Positions 3 to 30,042 of a DNA stretch of 38,183 bases are shown in pieces. Position numbers and translations under genes: made by a program. The stretch is from Candidatus Zixiibacteriota bacterium. Its GTDB lineage: Bacteria; Zixibacteria; MSB-5A5; UBA10806; 4484-95. The notes beneath the pieces were generated by a model, which was not told the origin of the DNA, did no database searches, and saw only the letters and a list, made by a program, of their open reading frames with translations. The first letter of the stretch is position 1. Each line of letters opens with the position of its first letter. The stretch is taken from the NCBI GenBank assembly GCA_029932605.1, contig JAOZPT010000006.1, positions 1 through 38,183 of the forward strand, given 5' to 3'.

Positions 3-1028
3 GGGTTGGAAATTCCCCTTGATAGAGCGAATAACATATTTGCACGTACTTTCCTTGAGAAAAAATCGATTATTATACATGAATCGGAACTGGATGTTTC
101 GGAGTATACCGAGCTTAAAAAAAGAATTGGACGGGGTCCACTGGCGGTTGTTCCTCTGGTTGGGGAAGAATCGCTCCAGGGGATCTTGATTGCTGACAAT
201 TTTATAACACATCAGGAAATTGATAAAAACGACCTGCAACTTTTGGAAATTTTCGCTCGGTATGCAAGCGATTCTATTGAGAAGTTCAGGTTAAATGAAC
301 GATTGGGGAAAAAAGTCGAGGCCTTAAAAAGAGCTAATGAAACGATTATTCTCAGCCGGGAAAATTTGATAAAAGCAGAAAGGTTGTCTGGCCTGGCGGA
401 AATGGCGGGTCAGGTTGCTCATGAGGTGAGAAATCCGCTTACAGTAATTGGTGGATTTACCAAATCAATGCTTAATAAAATGGATGATGGAAATGAAAAT
501 TATGAATACCTCAAGATTATTATCGAACAGGTTAAAAGGATTGAGGGGGCTTTAGAAAGATTTTCCAGTCTGGTTAATTATCAGGAAAAAAATGAGCAGG
601 TCTGTGACCTCGTTGAATTGGTTAAATCGACGATGATAATTGAAAATCACAATGTGGATATTGGGAAGTTTAGCGTTCAAGCTAAAGATGCAGTATCGGT
701 AAAAATTGACCCCGATCTTTTCCGCCATGCGCTGCTAATTATTATAAAAAAAGTGGATTCATTGCAAAGATGCTCCGAAACAATGGTTCTGTTTATAAAA
801 AAGACGGTAAAAAAAGCGGTTATTGTTTTTGAACCGTCATGCCGAAAAAACTGGTTTGCCGAGGAGGCTTACAGGAGCTTTCATTCAGGTGGGAACCATC
901 GATTAAGAAGAGAGTTGTCTGTTGCTCTTGAGGTTTTGAAGTACTATGGGGGCAATATTGGTCTTGAAGTTCAAAATAACAACGATATGAAGTTTTATGT
1001 AGAATTGCCTATTTACGAGGAGGAATGA
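3..1028 (+). CDS. GAF-domain sensor histidine kinase-like protein (5' end outside window); intact HisKA box, degenerate HATPase domain
   Basis: GAF-like C-terminal strands (AVVPLVGEESLQGILIADN...DLQLLEIFA), coiled coil, H-box AHEVRNPLTVIGGF; the C-terminal domain keeps the HATPase layout (DPDLF..., GGNIGLE...FYVELP) but lacks the N, G1 and G2 box residues; the frame is open to the window edge. Confidence 0.85.
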   Translation, partial: GLEIPLDRANNIFARTFLEKKSIIIHESELDVSEYTELKKRIGRGPLAVVPLVGEESLQGILIADNFITHQEIDKNDLQLLEIFARYASDSIEKFRLNERLGKKVEALKRANETIILSRENLIKAERLSGLAEMAGQVAHEVRNPLTVIGGFTKSMLNKMDDGNENYEYLKIIIEQVKRIEGALERFSSLVNYQEKNEQVCDLVELVKSTMIIENHNVDIGKFSVQAKDAVSVKIDPDLFRHALLIIIKKVDSLQRCSETMVLFIKKTVKKAVIVFEPSCRKNWFAEEAYRSFHSGGNHRLRRELSVALEVLKYYGGNIGLEVQNNNDMKFYVELPIYEEE

Positions 1029-1384
1029 TGAGAAGGATATTGGTTGTTGACGACGAGTCGGCAATACGGAAGTTGTACCATAAAGAGTTTCTTGAGGACG
1101 GGTATGATGTGATTTTGGCTAAAAGTGGCCAGGAAGCGCTCGATAAAATTGAAAACGATAGGAATATCGACCTGGTTATACTCGATATCAAGATGGAAGG
1201 TATGGATGGGTTGGAGGTTTTGAACGAATTAAGAGTTAAAACAAAAGAGATTCCTGTTATTTTAAACTCAGCTTATTCAACCTATAAAAGCGATTTTACA
1301 TCCTGGTTAGCCGATGCTTATCTGGTCAAATCATATGATTTGACTGAATTAAAGGAAAAGGTTCAGGAACTTATTCCTGTTTAA
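1028..1384 (+). CDS. single-domain response regulator (receiver)
   Basis: ILVVDDE, LVILDIKM (phospho-Asp), LNSAY, YLVKS; ATG overlaps the upstream stop (TGATG) after the SD GAGGAGG; alternative start 1025. Confidence 0.92.
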   Translation: MRRILVVDDESAIRKLYHKEFLEDGYDVILAKSGQEALDKIENDRNIDLVILDIKMEGMDGLEVLNELRVKTKEIPVILNSAYSTYKSDFTSWLADAYLVKSYDLTELKEKVQELIPV

Positions 1385-1387
1385 GCT

Positions 1388-1765
1388 ATGGAAGAAAAAA
1401 AAGAAAATCTGATTGGCTTTATAGAATCGACATCTGAGCGGATTCAAATTCTGGCTTTAAATATTGCTGTGGTTGCAGCCAAGATGTCTTATAACAAGGA
1501 ATTGGGGTTGGATGTTAATAATAAGTTAAACCAATTGGTCAATCAGGTAACCTTAGCGGTGAAAAATATAGGGCACATTCTCCGAGCTGCTAAAACCAAT
1601 AAAATGAAAAATGATGTGTTTACAGAGGGGTACAACGTTAGGGTGAACCCCGAACTTGTAAATGACATCGAGATCGGTTTGAACAAGATCATGGAAGATA
1701 GCCAGAAAATTATGGAGATGCTTAACAAGGTCAAACAGAAATCACTTGACGGTTCTGGAGGTTAG
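1388..1765 (+). CDS. small helical protein resembling the chemoreceptor (MCP) signalling hairpin tip
   Basis: IESTSERIQILALNIAVVAAK aligns without gaps to the MCP tip motif [18 protein letters not shown]; tightly packed between two receiver genes. Confidence 0.65.
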   Translation: MEEKKENLIGFIESTSERIQILALNIAVVAAKMSYNKELGLDVNNKLNQLVNQVTLAVKNIGHILRAAKTNKMKNDVFTEGYNVRVNPELVNDIEIGLNKIMEDSQKIMEMLNKVKQKSLDGSGG

Positions 1766-1766
1766 T

Positions 1767-2156
1767 ATGGGAAGACTTGTTCTTGTGGTGGATGATGAAC
1801 GGGATGTACTTGATGTTCTTACTGATGTCCTTGATTCACTTGGGTATTCTGCTACGGGCGTAACAAGAGGTGATGAGGCTTTGAAGGTTTTAAAGAAAAA
1901 AAAGTTCGATCTTATCATCGCCGACCTGATAATGCCGGAAATGGGGGGATTGGATTTTATTAAAAAAATGAGAAAAATACGTAAGAAAACCCCGGTAATA
2001 ATTACGGCTGGTGTTGATATTAATGAGTCAAAAATCGATTTGAGGAAGTATGGCGTAAGCGATTTTATTCAAAAACCGTTTAGGATCAGTGATATTGGAC
2101 GCAAGATTGAAAACTCTATTAAGAATGAATGCATTGTTCACGGTAAAAATAATTAG
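1767..2156 (+). CDS. single-domain response regulator (receiver)
   Basis: VLVVDDE, LIIADLIMPEMGG, IITAG, FIQKPF; SD GGAGG at 1757-1761 supports ATG 1767. Confidence 0.92.
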   Translation: MGRLVLVVDDERDVLDVLTDVLDSLGYSATGVTRGDEALKVLKKKKFDLIIADLIMPEMGGLDFIKKMRKIRKKTPVIITAGVDINESKIDLRKYGVSDFIQKPFRISDIGRKIENSIKNECIVHGKNN

Positions 2157-2226
2157 AGATCTTATAAACATTGTATGACCAGTGTTTCAACTATAATAAT
2201 GGCTGGCTATAACAAGATCGTATCTC

Positions 2227-2253
2227 TAAATGAATTATGTATCGTTTCGATAA
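2227..2253 (+). promoter_or_regulatory. putative sigma28 (FliA) promoter for the receiver-fapA pair
   Basis: TAAA(2227-2230)-N15-TTCGATAA(2246-2253) vs consensus TAAA-N15-GCCGATAA, in the intergenic gap. Confidence 0.55.
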
Positions 2254-2351
2254 ATTAGAATGTTGGTAATTTACGATTTTATATTTGGATAAGAGCGTTG
2301 TTTTAATACAAGTAGGGTTACTTTTAGGTTATTTAAAAATGGAGAGAAAAG

Positions 2352-2768
2352 ATGAAAGAAGACGTGAAAATTATGATTGTGGATGATGAAGCGATAATGC
2401 GTAATCTTCTTTTGAAAATCTTAGAACAAGAAGGTTATCATGTAACGCTGGTTTCATCCGCCAAAGAGGCTATTGAAAAGCTCAATAATGAAAGGTTTGA
2501 TCTTTTGCTTTCTGATGTCAAGATGCCCGATATGGACGGATTTCAGCTTCTGAAGAAAGTTAAAAAGGAATGGCCTCAAATAGCGATAATTATGATGACG
2601 GGATATGGTGATGCCTATACTGTCAAAGAAGCTTTGATGCTTGGAGCTGATGAGTATATTACAAAACCATTTAAAAGCCATGAGATATCGCTTATCGTAG
2701 AACGTGCTTACTGGCGTTTGCTGGCATCAAAACGGAGAATTAACGAGGAATCAAAAATAGCTGATTGA
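2352..2768 (+). CDS. single-domain response regulator (receiver)
   Basis: IMIVDDE, LLLSDVKMPDMDG, MMTGYG, YITKPF; SD GGAG. Confidence 0.93.
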   Translation: MKEDVKIMIVDDEAIMRNLLLKILEQEGYHVTLVSSAKEAIEKLNNERFDLLLSDVKMPDMDGFQLLKKVKKEWPQIAIIMMTGYGDAYTVKEALMLGADEYITKPFKSHEISLIVERAYWRLLASKRRINEESKIAD

Positions 2769-4207
2769 TTAAAATGGTTCAAGTTGCCTTAAGAGAAAAT
2801 CGAATACATACTCTTAAACAAGATGGTTACCAATTTAAGATATTCTTCTGGCATAACTTAATGATTGCTCACTTAACCATTGAACAAATAGACCATTATG
2901 CGGTTTTCAAATTCACTATCGAAGATTTAATTGAGATTTTAAAAAAGGCTGGTATTGTCTATGGTATAAGAAAGGAACAGTTGGAAAAAGTAATAAACAA
3001 TACCATCTTAAATAAATCCATTGAGGTTGCCAGAGGAACTTTTCCTGAGAGGGGTAAGGATGCAGATATTGAATTTCTATTTGATACAACCAAAAGCAAA
3101 ACGCCAGTTGTTCAAAATGATGGGTATATTGATTATAAAAACTTAAATATTATCCGTAATGCCGTTGTTGGCCAACCACTCGCAAAAAAGGTTCATGCGG
3201 TTAGGGGAAAATCCGGAATTACTGTTACCGGTGAAAAAGTGGAAGGATTAATGGGGAGAGACCGGGCGCTACCGAAAGGGAAAAACACGTATATTTCGTC
3301 TGATAATCCTGATTTGCTTGTTTCAACTATAGATGGCGCTATAACTTTCAACGATAATGTAGTTTCGGTGGAGAGAAATTATAAATTACGCTCCGATGTT
3401 GACACTTCTACAGGAAATATTGAATTTGTGGGGAATTTGCATATAAGTGGATCTGTCAGAGCCGGTTTCAGAATCAAGGTTGATGGGGATGTTGAAATTG
3501 ATAAAAACATCGAGGATGCAGAGGTCATATCCGGTGGTTCAGTTGTAGCAAAAGGTGGCTTTATTGGCTCGGGAAAGGGGTTGATAAAAGCAAAGAATGA
3601 CGTTTTTATAAAATATATAGGAAACCAGCGGATTGTAGCGGGTAACAATGTCAAAATCATTGATGAGGCAATGAACGCTCAGGTGGAAGCTGGCAACGCT
3701 GTTTATCTTAAGGGGGAAGGCAGTATAATCGTAGGTGGACAGGTATCTGCATGCAATCTTGTTGATGTGAATTCCATCGGATCAGAAATGGGTATTCGGA
3801 CTCTGGTCAGAGTTGGTTACGATAAGATTTTAATGGAAAAATATACCAACGTTAAAACTGAAGTTAACAGCTTGCAAAATGATAAGGCGAAGATCGGAAA
3901 GGAAGTAAAGACGCTTCTTGGTTTGAAAAAAGATGATGAGTTAAACGAGGAACAGAGATTATTGCTTTTACAACTTAAAAAAAAACAAGCTGAGATTTCG
4001 AAAAAGATTGAAGAGATGGAGGGAAAGGGAAATGAGCTGTTAACGGAAATACAAGAAAATAAAATAGCTAAAATCGTGGTTAGAGGGAATATTTATCCGG
4101 GCACCACGATACAAATAGGCATATTGAAAAAAGAGATACCGCAAGAGTTGAAAAATATGACATTTCAAATCTACCAAGGCCGGATCATTTCTATCTCTAA
4201 CACATAG
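2765..4207 (+). CDS. FapA / DUF342 family flagellar assembly protein
   Basis: GIVYGI..., VARG..P..GKDA, IDYKNLNII, G.TVTGE, VDTSTGNIEFVG, beta-helical repeats, C-terminal coiled coil and IYPGTTIQIG; alternative start ATG 2774. Confidence 0.88.
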   Translation: MIKMVQVALRENRIHTLKQDGYQFKIFFWHNLMIAHLTIEQIDHYAVFKFTIEDLIEILKKAGIVYGIRKEQLEKVINNTILNKSIEVARGTFPERGKDADIEFLFDTTKSKTPVVQNDGYIDYKNLNIIRNAVVGQPLAKKVHAVRGKSGITVTGEKVEGLMGRDRALPKGKNTYISSDNPDLLVSTIDGAITFNDNVVSVERNYKLRSDVDTSTGNIEFVGNLHISGSVRAGFRIKVDGDVEIDKNIEDAEVISGGSVVAKGGFIGSGKGLIKAKNDVFIKYIGNQRIVAGNNVKIIDEAMNAQVEAGNAVYLKGEGSIIVGGQVSACNLVDVNSIGSEMGIRTLVRVGYDKILMEKYTNVKTEVNSLQNDKAKIGKEVKTLLGLKKDDELNEEQRLLLLQLKKKQAEISKKIEEMEGKGNELLTEIQENKIAKIVVRGNIYPGTTIQIGILKKEIPQELKNMTFQIYQGRIISISNT

Positions 4208-11468: not shown

Positions 11469-13388
11469 ATGCGAGTAACTAATAAAATGGTTACTGACAC
11501 GGTTGTTCGCAATCTTAGCCAGACGACTAAACGGTATCTACAATTACAGTCTGCTATCTCCTCAGGTAGACGTATTAATAAGCCATCGGATGACCCGCTG
11601 GGTATAACAAAAGATCTTAATTTTCGTTCAAGGCTTTCTGACATTTCGCAGTTTAATCTTAATATAACGCATTCCATTTCATGGATGTCGTATTCTGATT
11701 CAGCTTTAGATGACATTAACGGTTTGATTATTGAGGCCAAGGACTTGGCTGTGCAACTGGCTAATGATACTTACGATGAGAACGCCAGGATAGCAGGCGC
11801 CACCCAGGTGGGGGAGATGTTTAACCAGATTCTGGATGCAGTCAATTCTCAATATCTAAATAGTTATATTTTTGGTGGTTCGAAAACAAATATCCCGCCC
11901 ATTCTGGCTAACGATATTGGTGTTATCTATCAGGGTGATTACCAGGATATAATGATGGAGACCGAGAGAAATTCTTATTTGAAAATAAACACATTTGCCA
12001 GTGAATTTACTACAAGGCCGGTGAAGGTTTTGGGTGAAGGTTTTGATCTGAATCCTGGTTTACAACCTAACCTGTGGCTTTCCGATCTGAATGGTGGCCA
12101 GGGTGTAAATATGGGGGCGGGACAGATAGTTATAAATACATTAAACGGTCGCTTTGTTGCTGATATATCAGCGGCTAAAAATATCCAACAGGTCCTGAAC
12201 ACGGTTAATAATCTTGGTATACCAAACTTTACCGCTTCTATTTCTGGTGGCGGTTCGGGTCTTCAAATTGATGATACTTCCGACCATGAATTGACAGTCA
12301 ATACGCCCCTGGCACTTTTAAATAATGGAGCTGGAGTTTCTCAAGAGCCGGGGACATTTGTTGTAAGAACGGAGGACAGTTCAATTGTGGTTAATATCGA
12401 TATCTCGGCTGATGAAAATCTTGGTGATGTAATAAATAACATCAATCTCTCCCTGGCAGGTGCCGGCTTAAATAATGTGACAGTTTCGATCGATACTACA
12501 GGGAACCGCTTGATAATTGATGATTCTAATCCTATCCCTTATAGCCTTGTTATTGAAGAGGGAGGACCTAACCAGACAACTGCCGCTGATCTTGGGATTA
12601 TTGGAACGATGGAAGGTTATCTTGAGGGGAAGGAACTTGAACCGCTACAAATAATGATTGAAGAATCAGCCGATGGTGAAACTATAGCCAAAGACCTTGG
12701 TTTGTTAAAAGGCACGGAGTTTGAAACGCTTATAGGTGAGGATATCAACCCGGAGCTGAAATATTTCACCAAGCTTTCATCGTTAAACAGCAATGCTGGC
12801 ATAATGCTTGGTGTGATAAGAATCACAAATGGCTTGGATTATGTGGATATCGACCTTTCAGGTTTACAGGATGACCCCAATGCAACCATTCTTGACCTTG
12901 TCGACATGATAAACCGTTCGGGCATATATGTGAAAGCCTCTTTGAATTCTGACCGAACAGGTATAGCGGTTGAATCCTTATACGATGATAGATCGCTTAT
13001 GATAACAGAAGCAGATTCTGGAAGCACAGCCTTGAGTCTGGGGATATTCGGCTCACCGGACATTTTAGGCAATATGTTGGTTTTAGAGAAGTCTCTAAGC
13101 AGAAACAACACCGAAGAGATCCAAGCTTGTCTTGATGTATTTGACCTTGCTTTAGACCAGCTTTTGACTGTGCGTTCAAGTTTAGGATCCCGGATAATAA
13201 GAGCGGAAACCTCTCAGGTTAGGATGTTAGACCAAGATTTGCAGGTTACTGACCAACTATCACAAATCGAGGATGCTGATATGGTACGGCTTATCTCTGA
13301 GCTGGCCAGCGCTGAGGCTGTTTACCAATCATCGCTGGCTACCGCTGCCAGAGTGATTCAACCATCATTGATGGATTTTTTAAGGTAG
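11469..13388 (+). CDS. flgL: hook-associated protein FlgL with large repeated insertion domains
   Basis: MRVTNKM, ISSGRRINKPSDDP, YIFGGSKT..PP, C-terminal LSQIEDAD...YQSSL...ARVIQPSLMDFLR; 639 aa. Confidence 0.95.
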   Translation: MRVTNKMVTDTVVRNLSQTTKRYLQLQSAISSGRRINKPSDDPLGITKDLNFRSRLSDISQFNLNITHSISWMSYSDSALDDINGLIIEAKDLAVQLANDTYDENARIAGATQVGEMFNQILDAVNSQYLNSYIFGGSKTNIPPILANDIGVIYQGDYQDIMMETERNSYLKINTFASEFTTRPVKVLGEGFDLNPGLQPNLWLSDLNGGQGVNMGAGQIVINTLNGRFVADISAAKNIQQVLNTVNNLGIPNFTASISGGGSGLQIDDTSDHELTVNTPLALLNNGAGVSQEPGTFVVRTEDSSIVVNIDISADENLGDVINNINLSLAGAGLNNVTVSIDTTGNRLIIDDSNPIPYSLVIEEGGPNQTTAADLGIIGTMEGYLEGKELEPLQIMIEESADGETIAKDLGLLKGTEFETLIGEDINPELKYFTKLSSLNSNAGIMLGVIRITNGLDYVDIDLSGLQDDPNATILDLVDMINRSGIYVKASLNSDRTGIAVESLYDDRSLMITEADSGSTALSLGIFGSPDILGNMLVLEKSLSRNNTEEIQACLDVFDLALDQLLTVRSSLGSRIIRAETSQVRMLDQDLQVTDQLSQIEDADMVRLISELASAEAVYQSSLATAARVIQPSLMDFLR

Positions 13389-13979: not shown

Positions 13980-15674
13980 ATGAGCGATGAGTTTTTAACG
14001 GAAGAGAAGCCCTCTATTTTCAACGAAGTGACTGAATATCTCAAAGATGCCAATTTTGAAGAGGCCTTGAGACTTTTACAGGATCGATTACAAACCAATC
14101 CCGGTGATTTAGACACCCTGCATCTTATTGGGACTATCCATGCTAAAAAAGGAGATTATATCAAGGCGGAAAAATTCTTTAGAAAAGAGCTGGAAATTGA
14201 TCCTAACAGAGAAGAGGCCCATTTCAATCTTGGTTTGATTCATAGTAAACAGAACAGGCTTTCTGAGGCAATAGAGGATTTTGAAAACGTTGTCAGGCTG
14301 AATCCCGAGGATGTTCAGGCGTTGAACGACCTGGGGGTTATGTATTATTCAAAGGGTGTGACCGATAAAAGCCATGATCTTTTCTGTAAAGCTTTGCAGG
14401 TTAAACCAACGTATAAAGATGCCTTTTTAAATTTGTTCGAACTTTTATGGAATGCGGGGAAATATAACCAGGCTCTGGAGCATGTTTACAATTTCCTGAA
14501 AAAACTTTCACCGGCAGATTCAAATCGGATAACCCAACCAGAGGTTGAAGAAAACAAGCAGAAAGTCCAACCGGAATATTTAAAGAGGTCGCTGGAAATG
14601 CGCAAAAGAGCTCCGGCTATAATCAAGCCATCGGATTCGGAGAAACTGGATATTTTCGACAAGCATGTTCCTCAGGCTATTAAAGATAAAAAAACAGGAA
14701 TGAATATAGCGGTGGTGGCCGATTTCAATATCGCTGGTCAGCTTAGCCAGCTTTTTAGGTTGATAAATGAGAAAACCATACATCGAGCCAGGTGCATTAT
14801 CATTTATGACGATTACTTAACCTATGATAAAGATATTGTTCTTTCGCATGACAAACAGGATGATTTTCAAACCGCTGTCAAGATAATTGAAAATGCCGAC
14901 TTTTTCCATATCGGGAGATTCCCCAAGAAAGTTGGCGATTTGAATTTGTTAGATTATTTAAAACCGAACAACACAATCGTTCAATATTTCGGTAGTGAAT
15001 TGCGCCAGAAGGCCAAAGAGATTTACCAATGGCATTTGACCAATAAGATCACCGGACTATCAGCATGGGATTATACCATGTTGGAGAGTTCCCCATTTTT
15101 CTACCATATTAATATCATGTTTGACTCAACAAAAATAAAATCAGCGCCAAAACCCGAGGGAACTATAAAGATCGTACACCCTGTCACTAACCGCAATGTT
15201 AAACGGACAGATTTGTTCCTGGAGGTTGTTGACCGTTTACGTAAAAAATACGATATCGAGCCTATCCTTATAGAGGGAAAAAACAATCAGGAATGCCTTG
15301 AACTTAAAAGTCAAGCTCATATGACCTATGACCAGATATCGGTTGGAATCTACGGGCTTTCAGCTATTGAGTCGATGGCAGCTGGTCATGTCGTATTCGG
15401 TGGTATCTCTAATTTTGCAGCCAGCTATTTCCCCGATAACCCAATTGTGTGGGTTACCGAAGATGACCTGTTTGAAAAGATAGAACATTACCTTATAAAC
15501 AGAGTACAGATTCTCGATCGGGGATTGGCGGGTAAATCATGGGTAAAATTAAACCATGATCCTGACAGGATCTTACGTCAACATCTTTATATGTATGATT
15601 TTGTCAGAAATGGTCATCGCTTCTTGAGACATCCGGATGAGCAGTTATTGGGAGCGGGCTATGATAGAGGGTAA
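13980..15674 (+). CDS. TPR-repeat protein with C-terminal GT-B-like glycosyltransferase domain
   Basis: N-terminal TPRs (AHFNLGLI, ALNDLGVMY); C-terminal HPVTNRNVKRTD and DQISVGIYGLSAIESMAAG resemble the GT-B nucleotide-binding half. Confidence 0.72.
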   Translation: MSDEFLTEEKPSIFNEVTEYLKDANFEEALRLLQDRLQTNPGDLDTLHLIGTIHAKKGDYIKAEKFFRKELEIDPNREEAHFNLGLIHSKQNRLSEAIEDFENVVRLNPEDVQALNDLGVMYYSKGVTDKSHDLFCKALQVKPTYKDAFLNLFELLWNAGKYNQALEHVYNFLKKLSPADSNRITQPEVEENKQKVQPEYLKRSLEMRKRAPAIIKPSDSEKLDIFDKHVPQAIKDKKTGMNIAVVADFNIAGQLSQLFRLINEKTIHRARCIIIYDDYLTYDKDIVLSHDKQDDFQTAVKIIENADFFHIGRFPKKVGDLNLLDYLKPNNTIVQYFGSELRQKAKEIYQWHLTNKITGLSAWDYTMLESSPFFYHINIMFDSTKIKSAPKPEGTIKIVHPVTNRNVKRTDLFLEVVDRLRKKYDIEPILIEGKNNQECLELKSQAHMTYDQISVGIYGLSAIESMAAGHVVFGGISNFAASYFPDNPIVWVTEDDLFEKIEHYLINRVQILDRGLAGKSWVKLNHDPDRILRQHLYMYDFVRNGHRFLRHPDEQLLGAGYDRG

Positions 15675-16653
15675 AAGGATTTTTATAACCGGTGGCGCCG
15701 GTTTTATCGGTAGTGCTCTGGTAGGAAGGTTAGTTGATAAAAATGAAATCGTCATTTATGATAGCCTTTCACGAGATAGCCTGAAGGATACAATATATAA
15801 GAATCATAAGAATATTGAGTTAATTCGGGGTGATGTGTTAGATTATGAAAAGCTTGCTCGTAGTATGGATAAAGCGAACATAGTTATCCATTTGGCCGCT
15901 ATAGCCGGAATAGATAGTGTGATTAAAAGTCCGGTAACAACGATAAAGGTCAACCTTCTTGGAACTATCAACATGTTGGAGGCAGCTAGCCAGCAGGATA
16001 AAATAGAAAGAATCATAGATTTTTCGACCTCCGAGGTGTTTGGTTCCTATGCTTTTCGCTCGGAGGAGAATGACAGCACCTCATTGGGAGCGGTGGGAAA
16101 CGCCCGCTGGACATATGCGGTAAGTAAACTTGCCAGTGAGCATTTAACTTATAGTTATTTTACAGAAAAGAAGTTGCCGGCGTTATCCATAAGGCCGTTT
16201 AATATTTATGGACCCGGTCAGATTGGCGAAGGAGCAATACATCATTTTGTAGTTCGTGCTCTGCAAAACCAGGATTTGATTATTCGCGGTGATGGCGACC
16301 AGATAAGGTCGTGGTGTTACATTGATGACCTAGTTCACGGTATCATGTTAACACTGGAGAAGTCAGAAGCGGTGGGAAATTGTTTTAATATTGGTAACCC
16401 TAAAGGTACAATCACAATTCATGGTTTAGCCTTGGCGGTTGTGAGGGTTACTTACTCCAAGTCAAAAATAGTATATGTTCCAAAGAATTATGTTGATGTG
16501 GAGTTGCGAATCCCGAGTATTGATAAAGCAAGAAAATTGCTCGGATATGAGCCAAAGATAGACCTTGAGGAAGGGTTGAGGAGAACTGCTACCTGGTATT
16601 ATGGGAAAATCTTCGGAAATAAGGCTTACCAGACCCAATATATCACAACCTGA
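15661..16653 (+). CDS. NAD-dependent epimerase/dehydratase, UDP-glucuronate decarboxylase (UXS / ArnA C-terminal)-like
   Basis: ITGGAGFIGS, HLAAIAG, FSTSEVFG, RWTYAVSK (YxxxK), RPFNIYGP, GDGDQIRSWCYIDD; SD GGAG before ATG 15661. Confidence 0.88.
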   Translation: MIEGKRIFITGGAGFIGSALVGRLVDKNEIVIYDSLSRDSLKDTIYKNHKNIELIRGDVLDYEKLARSMDKANIVIHLAAIAGIDSVIKSPVTTIKVNLLGTINMLEAASQQDKIERIIDFSTSEVFGSYAFRSEENDSTSLGAVGNARWTYAVSKLASEHLTYSYFTEKKLPALSIRPFNIYGPGQIGEGAIHHFVVRALQNQDLIIRGDGDQIRSWCYIDDLVHGIMLTLEKSEAVGNCFNIGNPKGTITIHGLALAVVRVTYSKSKIVYVPKNYVDVELRIPSIDKARKLLGYEPKIDLEEGLRRTATWYYGKIFGNKAYQTQYITT

Positions 16654-17725
16654 GATAGAGGCTGTAACGCAGGTTTTATTGTCGGGTATGCTGGTTTCAG
16701 GCCCGGTTGTTGAACGGTTTGAGAAAATGCTGGCAGATTATCTGGGTTTACCTTATGCGGTGTGTGTTTCCTCTGGCACGGCCGCTTTGCATCTTTCTCT
16801 TTTGTCGGCTGATATCAAGCCTGGCGATGAAGTACTGGTGCCGGCTTTAAGTTTTCCAGCGACGGCTAATACTGTGGAGATAATAGGTGCTGTTCCTATA
16901 TTCATCGATTGCCAGCCGGATGGTGTGAATTTAGATGCTGAAAAACTTGAAAATAAAATAAGCCCGAGGTCAAAAGCAATAATGCCAGTTCATGCTTTTG
17001 GTATTCCTGCTGAAATGGATAGGATTTTGAGCGTTGCAAAAAAATATAACCTTGTGGTTATCGAGGATGCTGCCTGTGCCTTAGGTTCAAAGTACAATAA
17101 TGTATATTGTGGCACAATTGGCGAACTGGCCGCTTTCAGTTTTCATCCACGGAAATTATTAACAACTGGAGAAGGAGGAGCTGTTATCAGCTCTGACCAA
17201 TCGACCATAAACCTTGTTAAAAGTCTTAGGAATCATGGCTATGATGGCGATGATTTTAGATATCCCGGGTTCAACTACCGCATGACGGATTTCCAGGCAG
17301 GAATGGGATTAATGCAGCTTGAAAAGTTTTCGTCAATGCTTGAGGAAAGAAAAAAAATGGCCGCTGATTACAAATCAATGTTGCAGGATATAGAGTGGCT
17401 GAAGGTTATAGAGGCAGGTCCTGAAGCTCAACCTAATATCCAGACTTTTATAGTAAAGCTCGATAAATATGTCGATAGAAAATCGCTGATGAAATATTTG
17501 GGTATGCACGGCATTGAAACGACCATTGGTTCTTATTGCTTACCTTTAATGCGATATTATCGACTCAGGTATGGTTATCGCCCTGAGGAGTTTCCTCATG
17601 CCTTTGATAACTATAACAGGTTACTAAGCTTGCCATTATATAAAGGTATGAGTACACAGGAAATGGAAAAAGTAGTTAGGGCTTTAAAATCTTTTACTGT
17701 TAAAATCGAAAAAGTGAATGGATAA
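16601..17725 (+). CDS. DegT/DnrJ/EryC1/StrS (ArnB-like) NDP-sugar aminotransferase
   Basis: SSGTAALHL, GDEVLVP, IEDAACALG, FSFHPRKLLTTGEGG (PLP lysine), GFNYRMTD, LSLPLY. Confidence 0.95.
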   Translation: MGKSSEIRLTRPNISQPEIEAVTQVLLSGMLVSGPVVERFEKMLADYLGLPYAVCVSSGTAALHLSLLSADIKPGDEVLVPALSFPATANTVEIIGAVPIFIDCQPDGVNLDAEKLENKISPRSKAIMPVHAFGIPAEMDRILSVAKKYNLVVIEDAACALGSKYNNVYCGTIGELAAFSFHPRKLLTTGEGGAVISSDQSTINLVKSLRNHGYDGDDFRYPGFNYRMTDFQAGMGLMQLEKFSSMLEERKKMAADYKSMLQDIEWLKVIEAGPEAQPNIQTFIVKLDKYVDRKSLMKYLGMHGIETTIGSYCLPLMRYYRLRYGYRPEEFPHAFDNYNRLLSLPLYKGMSTQEMEKVVRALKSFTVKIEKVNG

Positions 17726-18707
17726 TCCGATGAATATAACTGTTGCGGGTAATACATCTTTAGCCTACTACTGCCTGGAGAAATTGTGCCGGGCTGGATA
17801 CCCTGTTAAGACAATTTTATTACCTCGAAAGGGATTTATTGAATCCTCCGATACAGTTGATTCTTCTGGTCTGGCTGGTGAATTCGATTTGAAAAAGATA
17901 CAACTTCCTTCATCAAACAATTTTAAAAATGATACTCAAACTGACTTGCTCGTTAAGCTTGAGTGGCCGGAAAATTTAAGTATTCCCATCAAACCAACTA
18001 TAACTACTATAAGCTGTAATCTATCTGGTCAATACGGAAGGGGTCGACTTTTGGATGTAGCGGCAGATATCTATAAGGGCGAATCTCACACCGAATTACA
18101 GTTATTCTCTGAATCACCACAGAGGAGAAGAGATTATCAGACAAAAGATATTGTCGATATGATTACAAGAGAGGTTCTGTCATATTCACTAATCGAGATA
18201 AATATCTTAGATGATGTTCGTTCTTTAAAAACCAAAGCCTCGGTTGTGTATTTGAGGTCATTGTTCGATTTGCTTGATAGTTTGGGTGAAAATGGGACCA
18301 TGCCGGATCCCTTTAAAAGGGAGTATGTCCTGTCCGTTGCAAATGCGAATAGGGAGATAGACTGGAAGAAAAATGTGATGGAGATTTACAATCTTGTAAG
18401 GTCATATACTCATCCTGGGCCGGGGGCATTTACACGATTCGATGAAAGAAAACTGACGGTCTGGCGCGGGCATTTTTTTGATTTTTCTGACAATGTGTAT
18501 AACGATGTTTCACCGGGAACGGTGCTGGATGTTATAGAGGAGTTGGGTATTGTGATAAAAGCTGGTGTTGGCTCGTTTTTAATTACACGTATCCAACCAG
18601 CAGGAGCGCCAGAACTTCCTGCAAGGGTTTGGGCGGATGAATTTCATATAAAACCGGGCGACAGGCTGAGTACTCATGTTAATGAGCCCGAAGAGGTCAT
18701 TGTTTGA
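17718..18707 (+). CDS. formyltransferase-like protein (Fmt / ArnA N-terminal fold) with degenerate active site
   Basis: C-terminal IDWKK...IYNLVRSYTHPGPGAFT...KLTVW...PGTVL...ITRIQPAG matches the formyltransferase C-domain; the NxHxSLLPxYRG motif is replaced by SCNLSGQYGRG. Confidence 0.7.
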   Translation: MDNPMNITVAGNTSLAYYCLEKLCRAGYPVKTILLPRKGFIESSDTVDSSGLAGEFDLKKIQLPSSNNFKNDTQTDLLVKLEWPENLSIPIKPTITTISCNLSGQYGRGRLLDVAADIYKGESHTELQLFSESPQRRRDYQTKDIVDMITREVLSYSLIEINILDDVRSLKTKASVVYLRSLFDLLDSLGENGTMPDPFKREYVLSVANANREIDWKKNVMEIYNLVRSYTHPGPGAFTRFDERKLTVWRGHFFDFSDNVYNDVSPGTVLDVIEELGIVIKAGVGSFLITRIQPAGAPELPARVWADEFHIKPGDRLSTHVNEPEEVIV

Positions 18708-18718
18708 AAGGATAAATA

Positions 18719-18991
18719 ATGGGAAAGGTGATAATTGAAAAAACCTTTGATGATAGGGATGCAGAGCGTTTAAAAACATCTGAAATGCCATACTTGTATT
18801 CGCAGTGTCAGTTGGAGGTGCCCGGTATAGGCAGAATCAGGACAGGTAAGGTTCATCCTAACTTTCACTTAACAAAAATGAGCAAACCAGAGAAGATAAA
18901 GCGCGCAAAAAAGGTTAATGTTAAAACTTGTTCTCGCGGGTCTGGAGAAAATGCCGATGTCAAAATGGAAATCGCATACAACCGGTCTTGA
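18719..18991 (+). CDS. hypothetical protein (90 aa)
   Basis: ATG preceded by AAGGA; fills the gap between two operon genes; no recognisable motif. Confidence 0.55.
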   Translation: MGKVIIEKTFDDRDAERLKTSEMPYLYSQCQLEVPGIGRIRTGKVHPNFHLTKMSKPEKIKRAKKVNVKTCSRGSGENADVKMEIAYNRS

Positions 18992-19493
18992 TTATAAAAA
19001 TAAACTTGGGCGATTGGGTAAAAATGTAGTTATCGAGGATGGGGTGCGGATATTTTTCCCGGATAATGTTGAGATTGATGAGGATGTTTATATCGGCCAC
19101 GATACTATCCTTAAGGGGTATTTCGACCAAAAATTGGTAATAGGCAGTGGTAGCTGGATTGGGCCCCAGTGTTTTATATACGCCTCGGGTGGTATTATTA
19201 TCGGAAGAAATGTCGGTATCGGGCCGGGGGTTGCTATAATGTCGTCGGCACATAATTTAGAGGTAAGGCTTGGTTCGATACTTCATACCCCCATCGAAAG
19301 GAAAACGGTGTATTTAGGCGATGGTTGTGATATTGGAGCAAAAAGTGTAATCCTCATGGGAGTGCATATCGGCCAGGGAGCACAGATAGGTGCAGGAGCA
19401 GTTGTTACAGAGGATATACCTGATAACGCCATAGCAGTAGGGGTGCCTGCAAAAGTATTGCGGTTAAGAAAGAGGGAAAAATTAAACGTGTGA
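18951..19493 (+). CDS. hexapeptide-repeat (left-handed beta-helix) acyltransferase
   Basis: IGSGSWIGPQC, IGRNVGIGPGV, SSAH, IGQGAQIGAGAVVTEDIP, GVPAKV; SD GGAG favours ATG 18951. Confidence 0.92.
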   Translation: MPMSKWKSHTTGLDYKNKLGRLGKNVVIEDGVRIFFPDNVEIDEDVYIGHDTILKGYFDQKLVIGSGSWIGPQCFIYASGGIIIGRNVGIGPGVAIMSSAHNLEVRLGSILHTPIERKTVYLGDGCDIGAKSVILMGVHIGQGAQIGAGAVVTEDIPDNAIAVGVPAKVLRLRKREKLNV

Positions 19494-19541
19494 TACCAGT
19501 GTGAAAAAACCTTACTAAGAAAAATCACTAATAATAAAAAC

Positions 19542-20012
19542 ATGAAATCACTAAGTAGATTTAGCTTTGAAAAATTTATGAAGCTTGCAAAAAACAGCTT
19601 CAAAGTTGAGAGATATTCCCGTGCAGCCGACAACTGCCGTTTAGCGGTAGAGATTGCTTTAAGGCAGAATAACCGATTACAGGCGGCTGAGGCGTTCGAC
19701 CTTTGGATAAGATCGGTTATTAAAAAGAAAAAATATTCGGAGGTTAAAAAAATCTGTTGTGAGGCCCGGAGCAAACTTGGTAATCATCTTGACCTGCTGT
19801 ATTACGAGGCTAAAGTGGCATTCTCCTCAGGGGATTACAAGGTTTTTACCAGGTTGGCAAAAGAGTATATTGAGCTTCGCAAAAAAACAAAAGTTAAATC
19901 ATCAACGATATTAAACAAATCATATGAAAGAATTGATGAAATTAAAGATTTACTAAATAAAGTAGAAAAGAAAATGGTTGAAAGACAGACCGAGGTAAAA
20001 AAGAAAACTTGA
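19542..20012 (+). CDS. TPR-like helical protein, paralog of the N-terminal domain of the downstream glycosyltransferase
   Basis: shared motifs with the N-terminus of 20009-22831 (SFK, W..S..K, A..KLG..LDL, G.YK, EY..L, L..SY...DE). Confidence 0.7.
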   Translation: MKSLSRFSFEKFMKLAKNSFKVERYSRAADNCRLAVEIALRQNNRLQAAEAFDLWIRSVIKKKKYSEVKKICCEARSKLGNHLDLLYYEAKVAFSSGDYKVFTRLAKEYIELRKKTKVKSSTILNKSYERIDEIKDLLNKVEKKMVERQTEVKKKT

Positions 20013-22831
20013 AAATGGGGAAGAGAAAAAGACAATTCCATAATATCAACATCTCTAAAACCGACAAATTTATCGAGCTTTTAAGGAAAGCTGATAAAAG
20101 TTTTAAACTAGGGGATTTTAGGAGAACAATATCTATATGCAAAAAAGCAGATGATATTTCCAATTTGAATGTCGATGGTGAATATTTTGCCAGAATTTGT
20201 TTCATATGGGTATTATCATTGATGAAACTCGGGGATTATGATTCGATTGATTATGTTATCAACAGGGCCAAGCAAAAACTGGGTACATATCTTGATTTAG
20301 TTTTCATGAAAACCATGACAACTTTTGGAAAAGGTAATTACAAAGAGGTTCTATTTGAAGTTGATGAATATGAAAGATTACATTCCAAAACCAATCCTCA
20401 TTTAGAAAGTTATCTGAAACAGAGTTATGATTCACTGGATGAAGTATTGTGGTTGGGCTCGGAGGCTGCCGGCAAGGTGTTGGATATTAAAAAGATGCTT
20501 GATTACATGGAAAGATCTTTAACGTTAAGACCTGATAATCATCCGCATCGCGTGGAATTTGCCAACTTGCTGGCAAAGCAGAATGAAGATGCAAAGGCAA
20601 TAGCGGTTATAGAAGATGGTATAAAGAGATATCCTGATATAAGGGCTTTAAAAAACGCCAAAGGTTTCATTCTGGGCGAACTCGGACGATACCAGGAGGC
20701 CGAAAAGTATATTAATGATTTGTTGCTGGAAAATCCTAAAGATACTGATTCATTAAACAACCTTGGAGTAATTTATGATAAACAGGGTTTGTATGATAAG
20801 GCAAAGGAACAATTTAAAAAAGTTTTGGAGATTGAACCGGATAATCAAAACGCTAAAAATAACCTTGATTATTTAAATGCTCACATAGATGATAAACCTC
20901 AAACGATATCTCTTTGCATGATAGTAAAAAACGAGGAAAAGTTTTTACCGGGTTGCTTAAAAAGTGTTGTAGGTTTAGTGGATGAGATAATAGTTGTTGA
21001 TACCGGTTCTACTGATCGAACGATGGAGATTGCCAGGGAATACAAAGCTAAAATCTATGAACATCCCTGGCAGAACGATTTTTCTTTACACAGGAATCAA
21101 TCTATAAGCTATGCCACGTGTGATTGGATATTGATCCTTGATGCTGATGAAGAGCTTGATCCCACCGAACACGGCATTATAAAGATGGCTACAAGGCGTA
21201 AGGATATCGATTCGATATCTTTTGTTGTATTTAACAGAATTCAACATGGCCGCATAGGATTTTTAAATTCGCACAGGATGTTTAGAAGAGGGAAGGGGTT
21301 TAAATACCATGGCATAGTCCACAACCAACTTGAGATTAAAGGTAAAACCCTTATAAGCCAATTTAAGGTGATTCACCACGGTTATGGTCTTTCCTCAGAA
21401 CAGATGGAGAAAAAGGGTAGACGCTCGGAGGCGCTTTTATTAAAACAGCTTGAGGAGTCTCCCGAGGCTATATTCCCTCATTTTAATTTGGCTCAATTAT
21501 ACCGGGGCCTTGGTGAGCCGCAGAAAAGCCTTGAACATGCCCGCATTGTCGCTGAAAGAATTGGTCCAGATAACCTTGATCGCCGTCATGTCTTTTTGAT
21601 GGCGTTAGACCAGATAGGCTGTGCTCACATAGGTCTTGAACAACTTGATGAAGCTGAAAAAACTTTTAAGAAAGCTCTTGAATATAAAAATGATTATCTG
21701 GACCCGATGTTCAACTTAGGCTTCATGTATATGAGGCAGAAAAGATATCAAGAAGCAGAAGAGATATTTTTAAGATATCTGGAAACAAGGGAGAATTACT
21801 CACCAAACAAAGAATATATAGGACTTATTTTAAATAACCTTGAAAGCCAGTTTGCCGTTTATTATAGCTTGGGTTTTATCGCTTTTTTAAGAAACGAAAT
21901 TGAACAAGCCCTGGAATATTTACATAAGTCATTGGAACAAACCGACGATTTTGAATATTTACATCATATTTTGTCCCGATGTTATCGTCGGAAGGGAATG
22001 TTTTTTAAGGTTCTTGAGCACTGTGCCAAAGCTGTTGAATTTGGACATGAAGATGCCGAGATCAGGTTAATTGAAGGCGAGGCTTTTCTCAACCTGAATA
22101 ATGCTGAATTCGCCAGGAAAAGTTTTAATAGGGCTCTTGAGCTAAAACCTGATTTTGAAGATGCAAGGTTGGGTTTGCTGGGTGCTGATTCACTGGAAAA
22201 AACACCTGAAGAACTAATTGAGTATGTGAACCGTTTTTTAGAGAAATCACCCTCCTCACCACAGGGGTTGGCGGCTAAAGGTGATGTTTTATTCAAGCTT
22301 GGCGATTACAATAAGGCGTTGAGTAGTTATAGAGAATCGGCCAGTAAGTACCCTGAAGATTACAAAGTGCTTAATAACCTCGGCAATTGTTTTCTCAAGC
22401 AGAAAAATTATGCCTCGGCGGAATTTTATTATCTTTCAGCATTGCAAAGAAACAAGGAATTTCTTCCTGGTTACCGCAATCTTGCAATTACCTTAATTCA
22501 TCAGGGCAGGGTATCCGATGCGGCCGAATATCTGGAATATTATCTGTATAAAAATCCCAATGATGGTGAGGTACATGCTACATTGGGTGACATATATTAC
22601 AATAATAAAAATTATGATAAATCCATATTACATTTCGAGAAGTATCTATTATTTTACCCTAACAGCATTGATGCCTTGATCCGTCTTTCCGATTGTTATT
22701 TCAATTCGGGCAAATTCCAGGCGGCTGCTTTGGGTTATCAAGCTGTGCTATCAAGAGATTCTGCAAACAAAACCGCAAAACAAAAATTGAAAGATTTGAG
22801 AGGGTTTTTAGAACCCGTTGTCTCGCAATAA
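20009..22831 (+). CDS. TPR-GT2-TPR glycosyltransferase, probable flagellin glycosyltransferase
   Basis: ISLCMIVKNEE, VDTGSTDRT, WQNDFS..RN, WILILDADE (DxD), HHGY, flanked by many TPRs; directly upstream of fliC. Confidence 0.9.
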   Translation: MKMGKRKRQFHNINISKTDKFIELLRKADKSFKLGDFRRTISICKKADDISNLNVDGEYFARICFIWVLSLMKLGDYDSIDYVINRAKQKLGTYLDLVFMKTMTTFGKGNYKEVLFEVDEYERLHSKTNPHLESYLKQSYDSLDEVLWLGSEAAGKVLDIKKMLDYMERSLTLRPDNHPHRVEFANLLAKQNEDAKAIAVIEDGIKRYPDIRALKNAKGFILGELGRYQEAEKYINDLLLENPKDTDSLNNLGVIYDKQGLYDKAKEQFKKVLEIEPDNQNAKNNLDYLNAHIDDKPQTISLCMIVKNEEKFLPGCLKSVVGLVDEIIVVDTGSTDRTMEIAREYKAKIYEHPWQNDFSLHRNQSISYATCDWILILDADEELDPTEHGIIKMATRRKDIDSISFVVFNRIQHGRIGFLNSHRMFRRGKGFKYHGIVHNQLEIKGKTLISQFKVIHHGYGLSSEQMEKKGRRSEALLLKQLEESPEAIFPHFNLAQLYRGLGEPQKSLEHARIVAERIGPDNLDRRHVFLMALDQIGCAHIGLEQLDEAEKTFKKALEYKNDYLDPMFNLGFMYMRQKRYQEAEEIFLRYLETRENYSPNKEYIGLILNNLESQFAVYYSLGFIAFLRNEIEQALEYLHKSLEQTDDFEYLHHILSRCYRRKGMFFKVLEHCAKAVEFGHEDAEIRLIEGEAFLNLNNAEFARKSFNRALELKPDFEDARLGLLGADSLEKTPEELIEYVNRFLEKSPSSPQGLAAKGDVLFKLGDYNKALSSYRESASKYPEDYKVLNNLGNCFLKQKNYASAEFYYLSALQRNKEFLPGYRNLAITLIHQGRVSDAAEYLEYYLYKNPNDGEVHATLGDIYYNNKNYDKSILHFEKYLLFYPNSIDALIRLSDCYFNSGKFQAAALGYQAVLSRDSANKTAKQKLKDLRGFLEPVVSQ

Positions 22832-28726: not shown

Positions 28727-29107
28727 ATGAAAATCGAGTCAATTGGACCTCTAAATCAGCCAGATCCAAAAGGTAAAAGTGGCAGAAACTTTTTGCGCCA
28801 GGATGGTATTGCCAAAAAACACAGACAGTATACGGACAGAATAGAACTGGGCGAGGATGTAATTTCAACTGAAAAGGATGGCTATGATGGCAGTTTTAAA
28901 AAGACACCAGTTAATTATACATATGGTAAGGACTTAAAAAGAACAATCAATTCGAATTTAAACAGAAAGATTCTATCCAAACCACCTGAATTACGTCATG
29001 AAAAAATTACAGAGGTTAAAAATAAAATTGCTAGGGGTTTTTATGATAATCCAGATAATTTCGCCTCTATTGCGGATAAGATAATTGACTATTATTTGAA
29101 TCCTTAA
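28727..29107 (+). CDS. flgM: anti-sigma28 factor FlgM
   Basis: MKI start, DRIEL motif, C-terminal RHEKITEVKNKIARGFYD...IADKII typical of FlgM. Confidence 0.78.
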   Translation: MKIESIGPLNQPDPKGKSGRNFLRQDGIAKKHRQYTDRIELGEDVISTEKDGYDGSFKKTPVNYTYGKDLKRTINSNLNRKILSKPPELRHEKITEVKNKIARGFYDNPDNFASIADKIIDYYLNP

Positions 29108-29142
29108 GTATTAATTTTTGTAATTGCCAGGGGTTTTTCTTT

Positions 29143-30042
29143 ATGCCTGAAATAGATACCTCCACTGATAAAAAAATTAGACTAATTGTTAATCGTATAC
29201 ATAACCTGCCAACACCGCCAATGGTTTTTACCCAGGTGAATAAGGTGATAAACGACCCTAACGCTTCTACCTACCAGATAGGGGTGATAATTTCGGAAGA
29301 CCCCGCGCTCTCAGCAAAGGTCTTGAAACTGACGAATTCGGCTTTTTACGGAATACCACGCACCATAACCAGCGTCAAACAGGCAATAGTCATCCTGGGC
29401 TTGGATGTGGTTCGCAGTTTGGTTCTATCGGCCTCCGTTTTCGAGATTTTTTCAAAACAATATAGTGTTGACAGGGACTATCTGGACTCTTTCTGGCGCC
29501 ACTCTCTCTCGGTTGCGTTTATGGCGCGAATCATATCGAGAATGAAAAATCTGCCCTCTGTTTTAGAAGCGGAGGAGTCTTTTTCTGCTGGGCTTTTACA
29601 TGATATAGGCAAGTTGATCATATTTACTCATCTTTTCGAGGACTTTAAAAAAATACAAAAAACTATAAAGGAAAATCCTGGACGACCAGATAACGAGATT
29701 GAAGAGGAAATTCTTGGGTTTGACCATGCTTTAGTGGGTAGTTATCTCGCCCAAAAATGGAACCTTCCAGAAGAACTTGTAGGTGCCATCAAATACCATC
29801 ATAATCCTGAGGAAGATCCTGATAGTTCTACCACTCATATTATTAATGTTTCAAACTACCTCTGCCTAAAATCTGAAGAATCTGGAGATTTGAAAACCAA
29901 GAGTGATAGAAAAGCTGTGTTATGTCAGTTGTCATGGGATAGGCTTGGCCTTGATACTGAGCGGGAGAAGCAGTTAATTCAGCTCTTACAAGATGAGTAT
30001 GCAAAAGCTGAAACATTTTTGAAAATGGCTCAAGGCGATTGA
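29143..30042 (+). CDS. HDOD-domain protein
   Basis: LPTPP, DPALSAKVLKLTNSAFYG, FWRHS, AGLLHDIGK, DHA.VG..LA.KW.LP, YHH. Confidence 0.95.
   Translation: MPEIDTSTDKKIRLIVNRIHNLPTPPMVFTQVNKVINDPNASTYQIGVIISEDPALSAKVLKLTNSAFYGIPRTITSVKQAIVILGLDVVRSLVLSASVFEIFSKQYSVDRDYLDSFWRHSLSVAFMARIISRMKNLPSVLEAEESFSAGLLHDIGKLIIFTHLFEDFKKIQKTIKENPGRPDNEIEEEILGFDHALVGSYLAQKWNLPEELVGAIKYHHNPEEDPDSSTTHIINVSNYLCLKSEESGDLKTKSDRKAVLCQLSWDRLGLDTEREKQLIQLLQDEYAKAETFLKMAQGD

Follow-up and report, generated by a model that had tools for sequence, protein, structure and literature searches.

A stand-alone protein resembling the chemoreceptor hairpin tip is conserved in a flagellar operon of Zixibacteria

Introduction

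To our knowledge, the one role known for the hairpin tip of chemoreceptors (MCPs) is to dock CheA and CheW and to control them. Soluble chemoreceptors that carry no sensor are full two-arm hairpin bundles of about 210 aa, and they work with CheA and CheW. Two other kinds of helical protein bear on the comparison made here. CheZ is laid out as a hairpin, a floppy linker, and a helix, with a catalytic acid-amide pair of the D..Q type, while Sda-type anti-kinases are helical-hairpin regulators of histidine kinases.

Here, we describe a short protein, the mini-MCP, encoded near the start of a contig from a Candidatus Zixiibacteriota bacterium (assembly GCA_029932605.1, contig JAOZPT010000006.1). 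The window is the whole stretch of this contig that was analyzed (38,183 nt, positions 1 to 38,183 of the forward strand), and it belongs to a genome of 2.53 Mb in 101 contigs that is 99.96% complete. All genomes compared in this study were MAGs, and the genome profile searches used a first-look filter. The mini-MCP is a tip-only descendant of MCPs of about 120 aa that is conserved across the phylum, even in genomes without any Che protein. The initial annotation of this DNA knew of no named family like it; our limited literature search likewise turned up neither a stand-alone family of tip-only MCPs nor an operon like the one that encodes the mini-MCP.

Results and Discussion

The mini-MCP gene and its predicted fold

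The mini-MCP is a real, conserved gene. Its ORF lies on the + strand at 1388..1765 (ATG at 1388, TAG at 1763-1765) and encodes 125 aa. Pfam found no domain in the product beyond a weak MCPsignal match, and neither Pfam nor a Kyte-Doolittle scan, in which the maximal 19-residue mean was 1.03, indicated a hydrophobic or TM segment, a sensor, or a HAMP domain. The methylation-site motif of MCPs is [ASTG]xx[EQ][EQ]xx[ASTG]. This consensus is matched by 11 of 12 control MCPs and has no match in the window's mini-MCP; 5 of 34 family members do match it, at non-corresponding places. The initial annotation had described a protein with no sensor, TM, HAMP, or methylation bundle, and these scans bear it out.

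An AlphaFold2 monomer model of moderate confidence (mean pLDDT 73.4, pTM 0.50) predicts three helices, the first two of which form a hairpin. Helix H1 spans residues 2-35 (1391..1492, + strand, as for all parts given here) and is followed by a turn at residues 36-40 (1493..1507), which the alignment places where MCPs have their GExGRGF turn. Helix H2 covers residues 41-77 (1508..1618). A variable linker (residues 78-87; 1619..1648), recognized from the model and from alignment gaps, separates H2 from helix H3 (residues 88-124; 1649..1759), which carries the conserved pattern IE..L..I..DSQKIM.ML and aligns collinearly with the more distal part of the MCP C-arm. The linker region is predicted with low confidence (residues ~73-87, with pLDDT < 50 at residues 73-84), and its length varies among mini-MCP subfamilies, as seen from gaps in the wide alignment.

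Structure searches were run with this model. Foldseek against the PDB gave no match at E <= 1e-3, with the MCP structures 3g67 and 1qu7 reaching E values of about 1-2 at best, and a wide VIA-align search returned only generic helical bundles, the best of them with a Z of 10.8, which does not reach the level required of helical proteins. Since 3g67 was reached at a Foldseek E of only about 1, structural support amounts to nothing beyond the sequence homology described next.

Homology to the MCP signaling-domain tip

Taken alone, the mini-MCP is a weak match to Pfam MCPsignal (PF00015; E = 0.0019), with residues 6-119 aligned to positions 36-151 of the 172-column profile. Its score of 18.5 bits (20.1 in the genome scan) is below the gathering cut-off of 34.6, which a few distant members just reach (35.7 bits for an ORF in locus L036 and 35.0 for P0036). 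The relatives strengthen the case considerably. The 23 close homologs are 118-125 aa long, range in identity down to 48%, and share 32 invariant columns; MCPsignal matches 22 of them at E <= 0.1 (best 1.1e-8). The family profile in turn matches the Thermotoga maritima MCP structure 2ch7/3ja6 with an E value of 1e-5, so the profile comparison that the initial annotation had proposed as a check comes out in favor of its reading.

Alignment of profiles points the same way. When the mini-MCP family (34 sequences) was compared with 12 MCPs by hhalign, the two matched with a probability of 98.1% (E = 8.9e-14) over 121 collinear columns, gap-free across residues 1-80 of the mini-MCP and with a single 2-residue offset thereafter. 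Given homology at the level of the family, the earlier ungapped alignment of residues ~12-65 to the MCP tip was right. An exhaustive HMM search of 1.84e9 representative proteins was consistent with this, yielding 126 matches at E <= 1e-3 that comprised short proteins of the mini-MCP family and long proteins. Every one of the 17 long matches scanned was an MCP (66-193 bits on PF00015), and 9 of the 21 short matches scanned hit PF00015 at E <= 1e-3. Judged by sequence, the mini-MCP is a true homolog of the MCP hairpin tip, far beyond chance when its relatives are included, as the initial annotation had supposed in describing a stand-alone 125-aa protein like an isolated tip.

The conserved core of this resemblance is the N-helix tip motif. 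On the basis of the invariant columns and the MCP alignment, residues 19-34 (IQILALNIAVVAAKMS; 1442..1489, + strand) are the counterpart of the MCP motif with consensus LLALNAAIEAARAG in our MCP set. Among the 23 close homologs, 14 of these 16 residues are invariant, on all faces of the helix, and no part of the protein is better conserved than this motif inherited from MCPs. Across the wide family, N25, K32, and E95 are the sole nearly invariant polar residues. Mapped by spacing on the MCP consensus, N25 corresponds to the trimer-contact Asn N381 of Tsr and K32 to Tsr R388, while the counterparts of Tsr E385 (V or A here) and F396 have been lost; the Tsr identities and numbering are those given in PMC6681711. 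The alignment also agrees with the initial annotation that the GExGRGF turn has diverged.

Public databases have hardly named this family. NCBIfam holds no family for the mini-MCP, and the nearest clusters in the ESM Atlas are unnamed Zixibacteria proteins, with PF00015 assigned to 15% of the members of one 141-aa cluster. A few family members carry PF00015 in some databases, and one is named “methyl-accepting chemotaxis protein.” No longer or fused forms of the mini-MCP were found: a dedicated search, weak as evidence, gave just one 678-aa MCP (E = 2.1e-5), and the exhaustive search showed none either. An identity as an Hpt phosphotransfer domain was rejected, as the 23 close homologs have no invariant His (H63 varies) and no Hpt match was obtained.

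Origin and selection

A quick tree search on 122 columns, covering 61 short proteins together with 94 MCP segments, placed 58 of the short proteins on one side of a branch with an SH-aLRT of 100; the three others fell among MCPs. The dN/dS ratios of the three unsaturated pairs were 0.15, 0.16, and 0.23, and the six other pairs had pS of 0.78-0.87 against pN of 0.14-0.35. These values argue that the mini-MCP evolves under purifying selection. The initial annotation had named a decaying fragment of a full MCP as an outcome that would overturn its reading; conserved length, descent in a single clade, and dN/dS of 0.15-0.23 rule that out.

A conserved place in a flagellar operon

In the window, the mini-MCP lies in a run of signaling genes on the + strand. 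The contig opens with the C-terminal 341 codons of a GAF-HisKA protein (3..1028; HisKA E = 8.2e-11, weak GAF), followed by the single-domain receiver REC1 (1025..1384; Response_reg E = 7.4e-24) and the mini-MCP. Next come a second single-domain receiver, REC2 (1767..2156; E = 6.1e-26), and a CheY-like receiver, REC3 (2352..2768; E = 6.9e-34), directly upstream of FapA (2765..4207; FapA E = 1.6e-58, FapA_N E = 9e-41), which consists of FapA_N and a beta-solenoid and is the last module gene before flgF and flgG. The spacing is tight: the REC1 stop lies 4 nt before the mini-MCP start, and the mini-MCP stop lies two bases before the likely REC2 start, ATG 1767 (the mechanical ORF call begins at TTG 1746), whose GGAGG at 1757-1761 falls inside the end of the mini-MCP gene. 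The mini-MCP is thus probably translationally coupled to the receiver genes on either side.

Flagellar genes continue downstream of FapA with flgF, flgG, flgA, flgH, flgI, flgJ, flgN, and flgK, and then a flgL-like gene, fliW, flagellin, fliD, and fliS. The N-terminal half of the GAF-HisKA protein is found at the end of another contig of the same genome (G000:C66:40865-41614). That contig end encodes FlhF, FlhG, FliA, two small proteins, and a DUF2225/TPR protein, followed by a YcgR-like PilZ protein, a 196-aa protein, a REC, and a 289-aa GAF-HisKA protein. The order of the module in relatives is PilZ, (REC), GAF-HisKA, long HisKA, REC, mini-MCP, REC, REC, FapA. In many other Zixibacteria (L048-L053, L057, and others), the module starts with three consecutive ORFs matching the PilZ HMM; the window genome instead has one YcgR-like protein and then the 196-aa protein.

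We then asked how general this setting is. All 19 loci first examined contained a mini-MCP ORF of 119-173 aa in a like setting. In total, 67 loci were examined, of which 54 were non-redundant; L051 was also left out, as the ORF and kinase calls overlapped there. Neighbors were tallied from simple ORF calls with in-house HMMs built from Pfam-annotated members. Within 400 nt upstream, the 54 loci had a REC (36), a long HisKA (8), a short GAF-HisKA (5), no neighbor (3), or a contig edge (2); within 400 nt downstream, they had a REC (45), no neighbor (5), or a contig edge (4). The gap from REC to mini-MCP was -22 to +12 nt in 34 of the 36 loci with an upstream REC. In 49 of the 54 loci a HisKA-type gene preceded the mini-MCP on its strand, as a direct neighbor in 13, and FapA followed within the flank in 31. 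Since 3 of the 54 loci have no HisKA gene nearby and 2, of the f16 type, have no downstream receiver, no single neighbor is universal.

The 37 loci from the species-genome collection came from MAGs labeled Zixibacteria/Zixiibacteriota, “uncultured Ignavibacteria(les),” or GN15, or bearing no phylum label. The mini-MCP keeps a fixed place in a flagellar operon found throughout Zixibacteria, and the synteny check suggested at the outset returned a HisKA/REC/mini-MCP/REC/FapA setting, with the neighbor counts given above for the 54 non-redundant loci. Separately, near-identical DNA to window positions 900-2900, defined as half or more of the sampled words, occurred in six sequencing runs labeled as hydrothermal vent, marine sediment, or sediment metagenome, one of which may be where this DNA came from; none of the 15 runs listed was an RNA run.

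Several other features of the window deserve mention. Between fliW and the flagellin gene (15637-22831) lies a sugar-modification island, probably for flagellin glycosylation, which encodes a dehydratase/epimerase, a DegT-type aminotransferase, a formyltransferase-like protein, a hexapeptide transferase, and a 940-aa TPR-GT2 protein. The filament proteins are unusually long: a 639-aa FlgL-like protein (11469-13388), a 751-aa flagellin (23036-25291), and a 778-aa FliD (25482-27818). Directly after fliS, the interval 28727-30042 encodes a 126-aa protein with a weak match to the FlgM C-terminus (E = 1.3e-4) and then an HDOD-domain protein. Farther on, at 31958-34768, lies the gene for an M28 peptidase of 936 aa that also carries an fn3 domain and, at its C-terminus, a T9SS sorting domain.

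Chemotaxis genes in this genome and its relatives

Profile searches of the 99.96%-complete window genome found no CheW domain, CheA dimerization domain, CheR, CheB, CheZ, or CheC. They found no other MCP, leaving the mini-MCP as the sole MCPsignal-like place in the genome. Searches by tblastn with the proteins of a relative (G028) gave nothing for CheR and CheZ and only generic ATPase or receiver parts for CheA, CheB, and CheV. The unannotated operon proteins of 196 and 102 aa had no Pfam match suggesting a hidden CheW. With neither CheW nor CheA in the genome, there is nothing for the mini-MCP to titrate. The initial annotation had proposed that the protein titrates CheW/CheA, and in this genome, which lacks CheW, CheA, CheR, CheB, and any other MCP, that proposal fails.

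The same pattern extends through the order. CheW domains were detected in 13 of its 24 genomes and were absent from 11, and 9 of these 11 have the mini-MCP (G000, G079, G129, G078, G084, G105, G157, G158, and G161); the two scored without it are 69% and 86% complete. The narrow family profile under-counted, as a direct locus search found the mini-MCP in 10 of 10 “negative” genomes that have FapA, in each case as an ORF upstream of REC-(REC)-FapA.

Despite having no CheA, CheW, CheZ, or CheC, the window genome encodes a FliM (contig C66, L045 1375-2358) that starts MAKILSQDEIDDLLS, an LSQDEID-type motif. This N-terminal motif is the docking site for CheY-P. The FliM N-terminus therefore indicates that the motor is still built for CheY-type input.

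Genus g2 presents a different situation. Its genomes (G028, 98% complete, and G155) have a che operon with CheR, two CheY, CheZ, CheA, and CheB, as well as CheV. No canonical MCP was found in either, and the mini-MCP is the best MCPsignal match there. Either MCPs were missed, or the che system is being lost, or binding between the mini-MCP and Che proteins holds in this genus. Because g2 keeps CheA, CheV, CheR, CheB, and CheZ without a canonical MCP, a link to CheA in some lineages is conceivable. Faint PF00015 matches were also seen inside the CheZ gene of G028, and the N-terminal helix of that CheZ (L046 2166-2771) is 36% identical over 33 residues to H3 of the mini-MCP (1649-1741), with an hhalign probability of just 16%.

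The HisKA proteins and FapA

The long HisKA protein of the operon does not look like an ordinary kinase in most clades. Pfam detected no HATPase_c in the window's GAF-HisKA fragment even at E <= 10. In an alignment of 13 orthologs of the long HisKA protein, the N-box Asn, DxGxG, and GxGLG motifs were missing here and in most clades and were intact solely in G148 and G100, which represent two distant clades, while the H-box AHE[VIL]RNPL was kept. By these motifs, the window's long HisKA protein is a pseudo-kinase or a phosphotransferase-like protein; possible identities are a ChpT/Spo0B-like phosphotransferase and a dedicated phosphatase. Elsewhere in the genome, contig C93 encodes a paralogous pair (L042 1246-3303), a kinase whose HATPase_c is intact (103.6 bits) and a receiver of 117 aa that closely resembles REC1; this pair has no mini-MCP. 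A complex prediction with two copies of residues 100-340 of the HisKA neighbor and the mini-MCP scored 0.00, which speaks neither for nor against binding.

FapA, with which the module closes, is described in two 2026 preprints as a motor part, a stator clutch, and in H. pylori as limiting motility.

A proposed role in motor control

We tentatively favor the reading that the mini-MCP is a binding adaptor or scaffold in a flagellar motor-control module independent of CheA and CheW, not a chemoreceptor or a CheA/CheW decoy; we regard this as a serious possibility, still short of probable. An adaptor is suggested by the ancestry of the protein, because the MCP domain is a docking and oligomerizing surface, and by the tight coupling of its gene to receiver and HisKA genes. 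The second option of the initial annotation, that the protein scaffolds the neighboring kinase and receivers, would be of this kind, and the gene order fits it strongly. Binding is suggested by the invariance of residues 19-34 on all faces, which a plain bundle core does not need, and binding is favored over catalysis because the family conserves neither a catalytic-type pair nor a His. There is a counterpoint: no CheW- or P5-like domain occurs in the module to account for the retained N-helix motif, much of which could be kept for helix packing alone.

In molecular terms, the adaptor might work as follows. The near-invariant face of the N-helix would be a legacy of the surface that serves MCPs for trimer contacts and for docking; the N-helix tip motif is the CheW/P5 docking site according to PMC6681711. 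In the mini-MCP, this face would bind at least one other product of the operon, with REC1 and/or the HisKA proteins as the likeliest candidates, and the protein may oligomerize like MCP tips. It could thereby couple or gate phosphotransfer to CheY-like receivers whose targets would be FliM and the FapA stator clutch. The module as a whole looks like a CheA-independent phosphorelay that would feed CheY-like receivers, the stator clutch, and PilZ brakes. A more ambitious version, which is conceivable but to our minds doubtful, makes the mini-MCP the core of an undescribed motor pathway, present across Zixibacteria and free of CheA and CheW. In it, a chemoreceptor tip trimmed to three helices would have been rewired to phosphotransfer proteins of the HisKA type and to CheY-like receivers, and the receivers would steer FliM, the FapA clutch, and YcgR-like brakes.

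If the mini-MCP does bind its operon partners, the receptor tip would be reusable outside the CheA world. The binding would also provide a handle on the regulation of the FapA stator clutch, and a hint at the way in which the motor is controlled without CheA in a flagellated bacterium whose FliM docks CheY. If the full pathway exists, receptor-tip signaling would not be tied to CheA, and the module would form a bridge between two-component and chemotaxis architectures. The mini-MCP would, in addition, be a natural minimal tip for structural work.

Alternative explanations

Among the alternatives, the one that survives best makes the mini-MCP a regulator of the upstream HisKA proteins, acting like an anti-kinase or as an MCP does on its kinase, with its hairpin docking on their DHp helices and controlling phosphotransfer to REC1. 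It draws on the HisKA-type gene found upstream in 49 of 54 loci and adjoining in 13, and on ancestry, as the MCP domain controls a histidine kinase in the account given in PMC6681711. Against it, the ATPase domain of the partner is degenerate in most lineages, which leaves little kinase activity to control, and three loci have no HisKA gene nearby. We consider it unlikely.

Distinctly unlikely, in our estimation, is an auxiliary phosphatase of the CheZ kind, whose hairpin and tethered C-terminal helix would bind the phosphorylated form of a neighboring receiver and speed its dephosphorylation. The arrangement of genes is suggestive, with the mini-MCP between receiver genes and translationally coupled, like cheY-cheZ in the che operon of a relative, and the order of hairpin, floppy linker, and helix recalls CheZ. 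No known CheY phosphatase was detected in the window genome by searches for CheZ and CheC/FliY, and E17/Q20 and D104/Q106 are invariant in the close family. Those four residues are not kept in the wider family, however, with Q20 replaced by K in the LALNLAIYLAK subfamily. The comparison with the relative's CheZ reached an hhalign probability of only 16% over 33 columns, with no match to PF04344, and G028 keeps the mini-MCP even though it has a canonical CheZ. In addition, the motif H-E-x-x-N marks phosphatase activity in HisKA proteins, and the HisKA proteins here keep it and could supply that activity themselves.

We think it very unlikely that the mini-MCP is a generic coiled-coil flagellar protein, such as a chaperone or export helper of the FlgN/FliJ type, in which the likeness to MCPs has ceased to matter, or a decaying MCP fragment. 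Its location in a flagellar cluster, next to FlgN in f16-type loci, and the return of nothing but generic helical bundles from fold searches would fit a generic coiled coil. On the other hand, the most conserved part of the protein is the motif derived from MCPs, and in 49 of 54 loci the gene is accompanied by signaling genes, not by export substrates; the conserved length, single clade, and low dN/dS reported above exclude decay.

Extremely improbable is that the mini-MCP binds CheW/CheA (or CheV) as a decoy of the receptor tip or as a minimal receptor. In favor of this reading, MCPs use the N-helix tip motif for CheW/P5 (PMC6681711), and genus g2 has a che operon and CheV with the mini-MCP as its sole MCPsignal-like sequence found. 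Such binding is impossible in the window genome, however, and the protein persists in nine genomes of the order that have no CheW. It has also lost the counterparts of E385, the GRGF turn, and F396, and che genes adjoin it in none of the 54 loci.

Comparison with known systems

Returning to the adaptor that we tentatively favor, the mini-MCP can be set beside four known systems. It is like CheZ in being a small, all-helical hairpin encoded beside CheY-like receivers and differs from it in having no detectable homology and no acid-amide pair conserved across the family. With the Sda-type anti-kinases it shares small size, a helical hairpin, and a gene for a HisKA protein next door, although the neighbor here is mostly a pseudo-kinase.

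The soluble receptor of T. maritima (3g67) is also cytoplasmic and consists of the MCP signaling domain only. Compared with receptors of this type, the mini-MCP has a shortened N-arm, and its genome has no CheA/CheW.

The fourth comparison is with the MCPs themselves, of which T. maritima TM1143 (2ch7/3ja6) and E. coli Tsr served as example tips. The mini-MCP measures 125 aa, against 250 or more for the MCP cytoplasmic domain. Its N-arm is about 35 residues (five heptads) long, and the matching distal N-arm of MCPs is missing; the C-arm, one continuous helix in MCPs, is split by the variable linker into H2 and H3. Unlike MCPs, it is encoded in a HisKA/REC/FapA/PilZ operon, and it occurs in genomes without CheA/CheW as well. 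Like MCPs, it keeps the pattern L-A-L-N-x-A-x-x-A-A-K/R, and it is collinear with their signaling domain over a stretch that begins about 23 residues ahead of the LLALNAA motif and extends about 85 residues past it.
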